DNA of 64,000 nucleotides. It comes from a virus. The notes beneath the pieces were generated by a model. The model saw only the letters and a program-made list of their open reading frames with translations. It searched no databases and was not told the origin of the DNA. Both the position numbers and the translations under genes were made by a program. This document shows, piece after piece, positions 25,022 through 31,197 of the stretch (position 1 is its first letter; every line of letters begins with the position of its first letter). Location: the IMG/VR virus record IMGVR_UViG_3300025545_000003, positions 42,831-106,830 of that record. One strand, given 5' to 3'.

Positions 25022-25079
25022 TACTTCGTGTAGGTGCATGGCGTAGGCTCACGGGGTAGAGTGGATGAGGAGGACGCAC

Positions 25080-26078
25080 ATGAAGATCACATGCTTCGGT
25101 TCCCGAGGTTCGCTTCCGGCCCCGTCCCGTAAGGACTTCAGCACCGTGGAGTTTGGCGGCAACACCAACTGCTTCTTCATCGAGGCAGGGCCTTTCAAGA
25201 TCATCGTCGGGTGCGGTTCTGGGGTTTCCATCCTGGGGGACGAACTGATGAAGCGTTGGGTGGAACAGGAGTTCCCCCATCAGCACTTCATCGTCCTGTT
25301 GACGCACTACCACTGGGACCACATCCAAGGGCTCCCGTTCTGCACCCCGTTCTACTTGGCCCACAACACGTTCCACTTCCACGGTCTCCGGCCTTCCGGT
25401 CACGAGGGCGGGGAACGGCTGGCGGACGGCTCGCACCCCAAGACGGTCGTGGAGACGATGCTGTCCCATCAGCAGTCCAACCCGCACTTCCCGGTGGCCC
25501 ACGAGTCTCTCCCGGCCCACAAGGAGTACCAGAGCCATGACCGCCAGTTCAGCGAGGCGTTCTGGTACGCCCACGAATGGCACAGGGGTCAGGAGCAAGA
25601 CGAGGCCACCCTGTTCCCCCACGGCCCCAGTACGGTGGGCGACAGGCCCGTTGGCGGCCCGGAGAACTGGATCAAGATCACGACCGTCCCGCTGGAGCAC
25701 CCGAACGGCTGCCTCGGCTGGGTCATCGAGTACGAGGGCAAGAAGGCGGCGTTCTGCTACGACATGGAACCCTTGCGGTTCCCGAACCAGAAGGTCTCCA
25801 AGCTGGGCCACAACGCCGACCTGATGGTTCTGGACGGTGCCTACACGGAGCAGCAGCTTCAGGGCATGCAGCAAGGCTTCGGCCACGGTTCCCCTGAATC
25901 CTGCATCGAACAGGCCAAGGACTCCGACGCCAAGTTCTGCCTCATCCACCACCACGACCCCAAGCACGACGACGACAAGCTCCGGGAGATGGAAGCCCAC
26001 GCACAGGACTATGCCCTTGGGGCGATGTTCCGGGGCCGGGTCGACTTCGCCCGTGAAGGCAACGTCTACGATCTCTGA
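25080..26078 (+). CDS. Metallo-beta-lactamase-fold hydrolase (RNase Z/PhnP-like)
   Basis: GSRGS, GGNT, THYHWDHIQG, HP, GHG, HHDP. Confidence 0.88.
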   Translation: MKITCFGSRGSLPAPSRKDFSTVEFGGNTNCFFIEAGPFKIIVGCGSGVSILGDELMKRWVEQEFPHQHFIVLLTHYHWDHIQGLPFCTPFYLAHNTFHFHGLRPSGHEGGERLADGSHPKTVVETMLSHQQSNPHFPVAHESLPAHKEYQSHDRQFSEAFWYAHEWHRGQEQDEATLFPHGPSTVGDRPVGGPENWIKITTVPLEHPNGCLGWVIEYEGKKAAFCYDMEPLRFPNQKVSKLGHNADLMVLDGAYTEQQLQGMQQGFGHGSPESCIEQAKDSDAKFCLIHHHDPKHDDDKLREMEAHAQDYALGAMFRGRVDFAREGNVYDL

Positions 26079-27370: not shown

Positions 27371-27377
27371 ATAGAAA

Positions 27378-27492
27378 GCACCCCAGCACGTAGGGAACCA
27401 CGGGTTGGTTACCGCTGGCCGCCCACTCCTCCCAGAAGTGCTGCTTCTCTGTGGTCTTGGACACCCCTGATCTACAGCCCCGGCTGGGGTGC
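27378..27492. ncRNA. Unidentified structured RNA (~115 nt)
   Basis: Perfect 10-bp terminal helix GCACCCCAGC/GCTGGGGTGC filling the gap between two tRNAs. Confidence 0.5.
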
Positions 27493-27495
27493 CTT

Positions 27496-27586: not shown

Positions 27587-27662
27587 TGGAGCGCTCGCCC
27601 GGACTTGAACCGGGGACCACCGGCTTCGGAGGCCGGGACTCTATCCACTGAGCTACGAGCGC
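27587..27662 (-). tRNA. tRNA-Arg(CCG)
   Basis: CCGGC-CTCCGAA-GCCGG; CCA end. Confidence 0.93.
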
Positions 27663-27665
27663 AAA

Positions 27666-27818
27666 GGTGGGGGAGGTAGGAATCGAACCTACAATGCCCT
27701 CTCGGGCGGTCTGCTTTACAGGCAGATGTCTATACCTTGCTGAAGTCGCAACAGAGTTCCCGACCGGGGTCAGGATAAGGTCGTCACAACGAGTAGCGTG
27801 ACTTTTGACCACTCCCCC
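27666..27818 (-). tRNA. tRNA-Tyr(GTA) with ~65-nt insertion in the D-loop
   Basis: GGGGGAG/CTCCCCC-A; TCTGC-CTGTAAA-GCAGA; 76 nt between D-stem strands GTC/GAC. Confidence 0.8.
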
Positions 27819-27822
27819 ATAG

Positions 27823-27895
27823 AGCCAACGACGGGAATCGAACCCGTAACCCCTTGCTTACCATGCAAGTGCTCTACCGTTGGAGCTACGTTGGC
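27823..27895 (-). tRNA. tRNA-Thr(GGT)
   Basis: CTTGC-ATGGTAA-GCAAG. Confidence 0.92.
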
Positions 27896-28022: not shown

Positions 28023-28094
28023 AGCCGAAGGTCGGAATCGAACCGACAACCTGCCGCTTACGAAACGGCTGCTCTACCATTGAGCTACATCGGC
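28023..28094 (-). tRNA. tRNA-Thr(CGT)
   Basis: GCCGT-TTCGTAA-GCGGC. Confidence 0.92.
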
Positions 28095-28149
28095 AAAGTG
28101 CGACCGGGGGGAGTCGAACCCCCACGCCTCAAAGGCACCGGATTCTAAG

Positions 28150-28229
28150 TGGCTGAGGTGGGAGTCGAACCCACACGCCCTAAGCGCCCGCCTCTAAAAC
28201 GGGTGCGTCTACCGTTCCGCCACTCAGCC
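28150..28229 (-). tRNA. tRNA-Leu(TAG), nested replacement copy
   Basis: GGCTGAG/CTCAGCC; CCCGT-TTTAGAG-GCGGG. Confidence 0.92.
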
Positions 28230-28724: not shown

Positions 28725-28791
28725 ACACAGCTTACGGTATAGGCTAGCAACCGGAACCGGCGTGTCTACCGTTTCACCACGGTCGCAAAGG

Positions 28792-29635
28792 ATGACCACC
28801 CGTAGCCGGGATCCTGTTTTATGGACACATTCATCTAGTGGCCCCTACCCGTCCGCATAGCGCTGCTCACCCGCTCTTGGCCCAACCCCGATGCCGAGAG
28901 CGTTGCCCTGAAAAGAGCTTCTGCATTCCTTGGCGTGTAAGGCCGTGACGTTGGCAGAACAGATTGAGGGACGGGGTCACTTCGTGTTCAGCCCCGTCAG
29001 GAGAACGGACTTTGGGGTAGGGCTGCTTCTTCTTAGTGCGGCTGATCGCCGCCTTTTCCGCTTCCGTTGGGGAAGCCTTCCGACCACCCGATCCCACAGC
29101 GTTCTTATTGCCCCGCTGCAAAAGTGACAGGGCTTGCTTCGTTTCTTCTGTATGCTTGTAACCCAGGCTGTTGCCTGCTTCTGGGAGGATGTTGTACTTC
29201 TTGGCTTTCGGGGTCTTGTCCAACCACTCCTGTTCCTTCTCCAAGAGCTTGTCGTGGGCCGCCTGAACAAGCACAAAGAAGCAAATGTCCTCTTCACCCC
29301 TCTTGGCAAAGGCTCGTTGTAAGGGGGTGTTATGGTGGGTGCCTTTTCGAAGAAGCCTCCCATGTGCTGAGAACCTCTTGTAGAGATCCACTGCGGACCC
29401 GATGTAGAGCTTCCCCGAAGCCCTACTTCTGATGGCATAGACACCGCTCTTACCGTGTAGCGCAGAATAAGGGGTACCTTTCATGGAAGGGTCCAATTTC
29501 ATAGGCCAAAGATACCACGTTCCTGTTTGGGTTGCACCCTCGGAAGTGCGAACGGCCTACGGCCTCCTTCCTTCAGCAGTGGTGTCCCGAGCTTCCTCAC
29601 ATCCCTTGCGGGGTAGTGCGTGCCCTCAGTGGTCA
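28792..29635 (-). ncRNA. rnpB: Minimal RNase P RNA (~210 nt) interrupted by a GIY-YIG ORF
   Basis: GAGGAAGCTCGGGA (CR-I) pairs with ACAGGATCCCGGCTA (CR-V) as P4 with bulged U; P1 TGACCAC/GTGGTCA; P2 GGGCACG/TGTGTCC; AGATGAATG; GGGTAGG L15. Confidence 0.85.
28867..29502 (-). CDS. GIY-YIG homing endonuclease with NUMOD3-like motif (start may be 29484)
   Basis: SGVYAI...LYIGSA...R...E...YN; SLGYKHTEETK. Confidence 0.92.
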   Translation of the reverse strand: MKLDPSMKGTPYSALHGKSGVYAIRSRASGKLYIGSAVDLYKRFSAHGRLLRKGTHHNTPLQRAFAKRGEEDICFFVLVQAAHDKLLEKEQEWLDKTPKAKKYNILPEAGNSLGYKHTEETKQALSLLQRGNKNAVGSGGRKASPTEAEKAAISRTKKKQPYPKVRSPDGAEHEVTPSLNLFCQRHGLTRQGMQKLFSGQRSRHRGWAKSG

Positions 29636-29728: not shown

Positions 29729-29817
29729 TGGTGGAGGAGGTGGGATTCGAACCCACTCACCGCAACGCGGACCAGATTTACAGTCTGGCGTGACTCTCCA
29801 ACTTCAACCGCTCCTCC
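29729..29817 (-). tRNA. tRNA-Tyr(GTA)
   Basis: CCAGA-CTGTAAA-TCTGG; ACCA end; atypical D arm. Confidence 0.88.
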
Positions 29818-30411: not shown

Positions 30412-30485
30412 GGCAGAGGTAGTGGGAATCGAACCCACCCGACGGTCGGTTTTGGAGACCAACCCGCTTACCCAGAGCCACCTCT
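30412..30485 (-). tRNA. tRNA-Trp(CCA)
   Basis: TTGGT-CTCCAAA-ACCGA; G73; short D arm. Confidence 0.85.
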
Positions 30486-30519
30486 ACAAGAATGTGCGGG
30501 GAATCGAACCGGGGCTTTG

Positions 30520-30975
30520 CTAGCGAATGAACTTGAGGGCTTGGGCGTTGACCATCTTCAGGATGTCACGGGGGGACATGGAGGCGAAGGAGGTCATCGA
30601 CATGGAGTGCGTGCTGGTTTCCTCGTCCTCGATCCCCTTTTCCTCTACATAGACGAACACCCACCACTGTACCTGGTTGCGTTGGAAGTCGGGGGTGAAG
30701 TACGCGATGACGTGGTCCTCACCCGGAGTCGAGGACTGGCTGGGGGAGGGGAGATTCGGGAAAGCGATCTCCACAGTCATCCCCTTCCTGTAAATCTCGC
30801 CCACATGGTCGGCCTGCGTGGCCTTGCCGACCTTCTTCATCCACTGGAAGAATGCCTTGTGGAACAGACCGATAAGGTCACCCGTTGCCGCCTCTTTCCG
30901 CAGAAGGGGCAGGATGTGCTTGCGGGTTTCAGGTACTTCATGGGCCAGTCTGACCAGTTCGCTTTTAAGATCCAT
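30520..30975 (-). CDS. Hypothetical, possibly virion-internal protein
   Basis: AGGAGG RBS; N-terminus LKSELVRLAHEVPETRKHILPLLRKEA. Confidence 0.65.
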   Translation of the reverse strand: MDLKSELVRLAHEVPETRKHILPLLRKEAATGDLIGLFHKAFFQWMKKVGKATQADHVGEIYRKGMTVEIAFPNLPSPSQSSTPGEDHVIAYFTPDFQRNQVQWWVFVYVEEKGIEDEETSTHSMSMTSFASMSPRDILKMVNAQALKFIR

Positions 30976-31111: not shown

Positions 31112-31197
31112 TGGATGATCAAGGAATCGAACCTTGCTGCCGCGTCAGCGGACCGGGGTTACAGCCCAGCGCAAGCACCAGCTTGACCGTATCATCC
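31112..31197 (-). tRNA. tRNA-Tyr(GTA) with atypical D arm
   Basis: GGATGAT/ATCATCC-A; CTGGG-CTGTAAC-CCCGG; D arm CAAGC-TGGT-GCTTG. Confidence 0.8.

Follow-up and report, generated by a model that had tools for sequence, protein, structure and literature searches.

Introns in archaeal tRNA genes can lie in the D loop. Protein-spliced introns at non-canonical positions are described for these genes (PMC3241643). In bacteria and their phages, tRNA-Tyr is the object of a documented conflict, where the retron-Eco7 degrades tRNA-Tyr and phage T5 counters with a tRNA-Tyr of its own (PMC11555353). In the literature that we searched, no tRNA gene of a bacterium or phage was described whose D loop is interrupted by, or extended with, a further domain. 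We describe here a phage tRNA-Tyr gene whose D region is interrupted, and we evaluate its layout, its predicted folding, its genomic neighborhood and its relatives in order to weigh the possible explanations for it.

The gene lies in a window of 64,000 nt, by which we mean the whole stretch of DNA that was analyzed, corresponding to bases 42831-106830 of an IMG/VR metagenome assembly record of 106,830 nt. CheckV places the completeness of this record at about 20%, and its source is therefore a huge phage of roughly 0.5 Mb. The record has a GC content of about 62% and contains 52 tRNAs and one tmRNA, as called by ARAGORN. Genes in the window encode RtcB, a Pth2 peptidyl-tRNA hydrolase, a GroEL-type chaperonin, an RNase Z-like metallo-beta-lactamase (MBL) hydrolase and a QueF-like protein, and HNH and GIY-YIG endonuclease genes are found between its tRNA genes. 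The tmRNA, an OmpA domain and GroEL are features of bacterial type. Long open reading frames on the wrong strand are frequent in this high-GC phage (window 24966-26087 and nearby); there, the GC content by codon position identifies the RNase Z-like MBL hydrolase at 25065-26078 (plus strand) as the true gene, and not a 373-aa open reading frame on the minus strand.

We confirm that window positions 27666-27818, on the minus strand, are a single interrupted tRNA-Tyr(GUA) gene of 153 nt, including the discriminator A73 and a terminal CC, in which RNA position i corresponds to window base 27819-i. This long tRNA-Tyr gene exactly occupies the gap in the huge-phage tRNA array between tRNA-Thr(GGU) upstream (27822-27895, minus strand, 4-nt spacer) and tRNA-Arg(CCG) downstream (27587-27662, minus strand, 5-nt spacer), and its 3′ trailer, a C followed by a U-rich stretch, resembles those of its neighbors. 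Its acceptor stem is formed by GGGGGAG (RNA 1-7; 27812-27818, minus strand; pair probability about 1.0) and CUCCCCC (RNA 144-150; 27669-27675, minus strand), with Watson-Crick pairing at 7 of 7 positions, and is followed by A73, the discriminator of bacterial class II tRNA-Tyr, and CC. U8, G9 and the 5′ strand of the D stem, GUC (RNA 10-12), occupy 27807-27811 (minus strand) and precede A13 and A14. The 3′ side of the D region, at 27728-27736 (minus strand), consists of GG (RNA 83-84), the candidate G18 and G19, then UAUA and the 3′ strand of the D stem, GAC (RNA 89-91), before A26.

The remaining arms are those of a class II tRNA-Tyr. The anticodon arm at 27710-27726 (minus strand) is composed of UCUGC, the loop CUGUAAA and GCAGA; it has a 5-bp stem, a 7-nt loop, U33, a purine at position 37 and the anticodon GUA at 27717-27719. 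A long variable arm (GCCC, loop GAGA, GGGC; 27693-27709, minus strand) and a T arm with a UUCRANY-type loop (GUAGG, UUCGAUU, CCUAC; 27676-27692, minus strand), both expected in this class, complete the body. An initial annotation of this DNA had described the acceptor, anticodon, variable and T arms as intact, and all four are located at these positions on the minus strand.

The intact gene receives no ARAGORN call, and Rfam's tRNA model gives a partial match of 20 bits against a cut-off of 29. When the insert is deleted in silico, with its ends set anywhere within a wide span around nt 17-81, ARAGORN calls a normal tRNA-Tyr; therefore, the tRNA body is intact and the insertion is its sole abnormality. 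Across the body, 21 of 21 helix pairs are Watson-Crick, U8, A14, the GG, U33, A37 and the T loop are preserved, and a search for the signs of a decayed pseudogene (broken helices, lost conserved bases) revealed none. A perfect 7-mer complement would arise by chance within the 85 nt upstream of an anticodon arm with a probability of about 0.005. The same pairing bears on whether the element arose only in the assembly of the metagenomic contig. In favor of an artefact, repeats abound in tRNA arrays and the record was assembled from a metagenome, but the insert is unique sequence, and its flanking halves fit each other perfectly and have no match among the other tRNAs of the record, which a chimera would not give. 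An artefact is thus barely credible.

In a tRNA of normal proportions, the D arm has a stem of 3-4 bp and a loop of about 8-11 nt that carries G18 and G19. In the long tRNA-Tyr, 76 nt separate GUC from GAC, as had been reported at the outset, and the three hairpins assigned to this D-loop are all present and predicted. We refer to RNA nt 17-81 (27738-27802, minus strand), about 65 nt, as the orphan insert; its exact ends are ambiguous because UCA..AAG microrepeats occur at both junctions. Hairpin 1 (GUCAC, a 10-nt loop, GUGAC; 27783-27802) and hairpin 2 (UCCUGAC, loop CCCG, GUCGGGA; 27758-27775) each have a pair probability of about 1.0, and hairpin 3 (UGUUG, a 6-nt loop, CAGCA; 27738-27753) has one of about 0.55; all are on the minus strand. 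The whole RNA folds better than its shuffled sequences (z = -3.5). The insert by itself folds no better than shuffled sequence (z = -0.77), and neither a promoter nor a terminator was found within it.

The predicted folding sets the insert in competition with the D stem. According to the partition function, GGUC (RNA 9-12) pairs with GACC (RNA 37-40; 27779-27782) with a probability of 0.99, and the long-range D stem GUC:GAC forms with a probability of 0.001. In the energy model, forcing the canonical D stem costs 4.1 kcal/mol, and the candidate G18 and G19 are paired in part of the predicted ensemble. Because the local GGUC:GACC helix is favored, the region can alternatively be read as an elongated D arm and two hairpins ahead of the anticodon arm. 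These predictions weigh on the possibility that the 150-nt RNA is aminoacylated and enters the ribosome unspliced, as a working decoder with an enlarged elbow. Such a decoder would have all of the charging and decoding parts, and its anticodon, variable, T and acceptor arms are unaffected by the insert. However, the predicted fold loses the D stem and pairs the GG, and a 65-nt elbow domain should clash with the ribosome's contacts to the elbow, judging from known ribosome structures. We know of no precedent for a decoding tRNA with an elbow enlarged in this way, and we regard this explanation as very improbable.

We also considered whether the insert is removed from the RNA. It is too short for a self-splicing intron, as the initial annotation had remarked: it comprises about 65 nt in the D region and matches no intron or ribozyme family in Rfam at E-values up to 10. 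Group I introns possess a catalytic core of roughly at least 200 nt (P3-P9) and usually reside in the anticodon loop. Removal by proteins would require an endonuclease to cut at both junctions and RtcB or another ligase to join the halves, yielding a tRNA-Tyr of 85-88 nt. In silico removal does produce a clean tRNA-Tyr, the phage encodes RtcB, and protein-spliced introns at non-canonical positions exist in archaea (PMC3241643). Against this, an exhaustive search, both strict and relaxed, found no bulge-helix-bulge at exon-compatible junctions, which upholds the original impression that no clear one is present. The tRNA-intron endonuclease domain (PF01974) has no match in the records of three phages, the present one (G000), G001 and G002, which are incomplete at only 20-25% each.

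RtcB had been described as encoded nearby. Its gene does lie on the same contig (13390-14802, minus strand), but 13 kb from the long tRNA-Tyr gene, and it is common in tRNA-rich phages; we treat it as context only. The MBL-fold enzyme that neighbors the long tRNA-Tyr gene is of RNase Z type, and cleavage by such enzymes leaves ends that RtcB does not join. No second clean case was found among about 200 tRNAs of the clade, and to our knowledge no protein-spliced tRNA has been described from a bacterium or a phage. We therefore consider a protein-removed intervening sequence to be quite improbable.

Two other classes of element were tried and rejected. The RNA is not a Y RNA-like (YrlA) mimic, because its ends form a tRNA acceptor stem and not a Ro-binding stem; the sole YrlA match touching the gene scores 20.6 bits against a cut-off of 69 and spans the gene's 3′ end and the next tRNA, and no Ro/TROVE domain was found in G000, G001 or G005. 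A MITE-like element with AGUC/GACU ends was rejected as well, there being no second copy.

We then asked where else the insert occurs. Blastn searches of all of the relatives' loci and of the phage record, with the complete gene, its 5′ part and the insert as queries, returned no match to the insert. Exact and gapped patterns for the 3′ end, the 5′ end, the whole architecture and hairpin 2 returned nothing or chance hits from 2.9 million viral contigs. BLAST against 50,697 phage records returned ordinary tRNAs only, and BLAST against 401 alphaproteobacterial genomes returned no significant match to the insert; the lone hit, of 33 nt, falls within a gene for a membrane protein and agrees roughly with chance expectation.

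Relatives of the phage were found by alignments of GroEL and the RNase Z-like protein, at 42-55% identity. We compared five related huge phages, G001, G003, the one represented by the L205 contig, G004 (381 kb) and G005 (536 kb, complete); nearer relatives, whose RNase Z-like proteins have 61-75% identity (closest 71-75%), lie outside this comparison. Single-protein scans with GroEL and with a spurious open reading frame yielded no relatives, and a metagenome scan yielded mostly bacterial MBL hydrolases at about 30% identity and only one short related contig.

The five relatives have a common layout, in which the RNase Z-like gene converges on Thr(CGU), Thr(UGU) and Thr(GGU), followed by a slot and then by Arg(CCG) and Ser(CGA). 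None of the five carries the long tRNA-Tyr gene. The slot's contents differ in the relatives examined (G001, G003 and G004), among which we found an HTH/PD-(D/E)XK endonuclease together with a tRNA-Arg-like fragment, a C5 cytosine methylase together with a cytidylyltransferase, and a multi-HTH protein with four HTH domains (slots at L041:2511-3468, L206:12049-14228 and L204:12231-13350). The Thr(GGU)-Arg(CCG) slot is a hot spot for cargo in the relatives. A purpose-written scan across about 150 of their tRNAs detected no other true tRNA with a long D region, its other hits being ordinary tRNAs with a chance upstream 7-mer. The initial annotation had named an unconserved insert, together with an unexpressed RNA, as the marks of a decaying pseudogene; the first half of this description applies, in that the insert was not found in the five related phages.

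Over its first 9 nt and its last 27 nt (T arm, acceptor 3′ strand, A73 and CC), the tRNA body does not differ at all from the tRNA-Tyr of an uncultured alphaproteobacterium (L218:6974-7058), and an exact 25-mer was present in 1 of 185,579 species genomes, which was that alphaproteobacterium. The remainder of the body shares only 62-69% identity with this alphaproteobacterial gene or with any phage tRNA-Tyr, and the helix differences between it and those genes are compensatory. Given a host-like acceptor stem and T arm and these compensatory changes, the body thus evolved as a functioning tRNA-Tyr that bears host-like charging marks. As the acceptor stem and T arm are identical to those of a bacterial tRNA-Tyr, the body retains the features that TyrRS recognizes.

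The phage has three tRNA-Tyr(GUA) genes in total, and a hairpin with a UUGUACA loop. One is a canonical tRNA-Tyr(GUA) at 29729-29817 (minus strand), which lies between Phe and Leu(CAA), as in relatives, and is therefore the orthologous copy. In the three relatives' array loci that contain a tRNA-Tyr (G001, L205 and G004), there is one canonical copy each, at the Phe/Leu(CAA) position in two of the three. ARAGORN places the 5′ end of the phage's canonical copy at 29814, 3 nt too far in; the GGAGGAG/CUCCUCC pairing begins at 29817.

ARAGORN missed the third tRNA-Tyr(GUA)-like gene, at window 31112-31197 (minus strand), which scores 40.8 bits with the Rfam tRNA-Sec model. It has the acceptor stem GGAUGAU/AUCAUCC, the anticodon loop CUGUAAC, a long variable arm and an odd D arm, and it shares with the long tRNA-Tyr both the UUCGAUU T loop and a D region that starts with GGUCAA. 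A tRNA-Trp(CCA) with an unusual D arm, at window 30414-30485 (minus strand), was likewise missed and reaches 40.4 bits with the tRNA-Sec model; with it, the phage's set of amino acids is complete, and a stray fragment composed of a T arm and acceptor strand lies just upstream of it, at about 30490-30520.

The 150-nt RNA could be a functional mimic that does not decode, acting as a decoy, a sponge or a special carrier of tyrosine in a phage-host conflict over tRNA-Tyr. Its marks for TyrRS and for nucleases that target tRNA-Tyr would be kept, and its three-hairpin domain would bar it from the ribosome or bind a partner. The intact body (A73, G1:C72, GUA in a canonical loop and a long variable arm), the identity of its acceptor stem and T arm to an alphaproteobacterial tRNA-Tyr, the phage's two further tRNA-Tyr(GUA) genes and UUGUACA-loop hairpin, the placement of the insertion in the least harmful pocket and the documented tRNA-Tyr conflict between retron-Eco7 and T5 (PMC11555353) are all consistent with such a role. 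Opposing it, the insert alone is no more structured than chance, and no homologue of it was found, so that it offers neither conservation nor covariation. A TyrRS gene was sought in this phage clade, including one complete 536-kb genome, and none was found. A mimic of this kind is a possibility that we take seriously, though it is unlikely. A more specific proposal, that this mimic works, can be charged with tyrosine and owes its elbow domain of three hairpins to selection, is likewise unlikely.

The array contains other interrupted tRNA genes and remnants of tRNAs. The halves of a split tRNA-Leu, at window 28090-28155 and 28735-28800 (minus strand), are separated by about 590 nt, and their acceptor strands still match perfectly (GCGACCG/CGGUCGC); between them lie an HNH endonuclease gene and a second tRNA-Leu(UAG). 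Stray 3′ halves of tRNAs occur in the same record. Outside the window, at G000:C1:35004, 38021 and 38735 (plus strand), tRNA genes are directly trailed by an extra 3′ half consisting of a T arm and acceptor strand, and such extra halves are duplications of the sort that an element creates on integrating into a tRNA gene. A region at G000:C1:35846-35967 (plus strand), also outside the window, was considered as a second tRNA with a D-loop insert and rejected, as its anticodon arm is not tRNA-like. This region directly precedes tRNA-Gly(GCC) and has an 8-bp acceptor stem, a T arm and a canonical D arm (GCUC AGUG ... GGGA GAGC) into which a hairpin of about 50 nt intrudes. The 125-nt gap between tRNA-Ser(CGA) and tRNA-Leu(GAG), at window 27371-27495 (minus strand), is a single long closed hairpin domain with a 13-bp outer stem and a folding energy of -55 kcal/mol, and a U-rich tail comes after it. 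This domain may terminate the unit to which the long tRNA-Tyr belongs, or it may be a small RNA.

We tentatively favor the explanation that the long tRNA-Tyr is a young, lineage-specific, interrupted extra copy, processed to a 150-nt tRNA-shaped RNA that would not be used for decoding. On this reading, it is an extra, phage-lineage-specific tRNA-Tyr(GUA) in a variable array slot, its D region broken by an orphan insert of about 65 nt. The gene would be transcribed together with the tRNA array, and RNase P and RNase Z would excise a tRNA-shaped RNA of about 150 nt, as they would for its neighbors. The insert would be retained and would draw a D-stem strand into a local helix, with the consequence that the RNA would not be an ordinary decoder. 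The copy would then be a relic, whose young age we assume, tolerated because the orthologous canonical tRNA-Tyr at 29729-29817 would carry out the decoding.

Several observations argue for a relic. The gene occurs only once, in a slot of variable content, its orphan insert has no excess structure and competes with the D stem, and the canonical orthologous tRNA-Tyr is retained at a position conserved in relatives. In addition, the same array holds other tRNA genes that are interrupted and undecayed (the split tRNA-Leu) and stray 3′ halves. Other observations argue against it. The tRNA body is free of decay, the insert sits in the D-loop pocket, where it should disturb the L-shape least, the 3′ trailer fits the array's usual processing context, and the acceptor stem and T arm are, base for base, those of a bacterial tRNA-Tyr and so retain the TyrRS marks. 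Because the insert has no match in the relatives or bacteria searched, sequence alone cannot separate a relic from a decoy or a spliced precursor.

The distinction matters for what the gene would represent. Should the RNA prove to be produced and retained, then either a tRNA mimic of a new kind or the first case of protein-spliced tRNA beyond archaea and eukaryotes would be at hand, with implications for the ways in which giant phages safeguard or manipulate translation. If the gene is a young relic, it records how often the tRNA genes of such arrays suffer insertions. The long tRNA-Tyr is a single case so far.

The phage's relatives possess tRNA-shaped RNAs with an extra domain of their own. 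In G001, G003, G005 and locus L205, RNAs of about 130-150 nt have a variable arm that contains a conserved module of about 65 nt (G001 L121:636-776 and 1636-1766; L205:7890-7953; in G005, L209:919-1067, 1189-1328, 2243-2384 and 2564-2703). The module is composed of an outer stem, an ACUCGU-like internal loop, an inner hairpin, ACAAU and ACACGC, in this order, and its outer stem covaries, with compensatory changes in 8 of 13 pairs. Several copies of these RNAs have odd anticodon loops, for example with A at position 33, and their Rfam matches include no family beyond tRNA. The ACUCGU motif is common to the module RNAs and to hairpin 1 of the insert, and we considered whether the insert is the same module. 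A covariance model of the module, R1, with 11 copies in the relatives, had no hit to the insert with filters off and E-values up to 10, and none anywhere in the 107 kb of G000; the identification was rejected. The module RNAs resemble the long tRNA-Tyr in belonging to the same phage clade, in their similar size and in being tRNA-shaped with a structured extra domain. They differ in that the extra domain lies in the variable arm, whereas that of the long tRNA-Tyr lies in the D region.

Compared with the archaeal bulge-helix-bulge introns at non-canonical positions (PMC3241643), the long tRNA-Tyr is alike in having a short intervening sequence in the D loop whose removal restores a standard tRNA, and in an encoded RtcB-type ligase. 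It is unlike them in its bacterial-type context, in the lack of a bulge-helix-bulge and in that no EndA-type endonuclease was found in G000-G002. With T5 and retron-Eco7, the locus shares the presence of extra phage tRNA-Tyr genes inside a tRNA-rich region; the tRNAs of T5 have an ordinary shape and act through abundance (PMC11555353), and for the locus described here a link to defence would be hypothetical. Compared with class II tRNA-Tyr(GUA) genes, both the phage's own (29729-29817) and the alphaproteobacterial one (L218:6974-7058), the long gene has the same acceptor and A73, the same CUGUAAA anticodon loop, a variable arm of the same kind and the same UUCGAUU T loop. Its D region, in contrast, extends over 85 nt, where the bacterial and phage class II tRNA-Tyr(GUA) genes have about 20.
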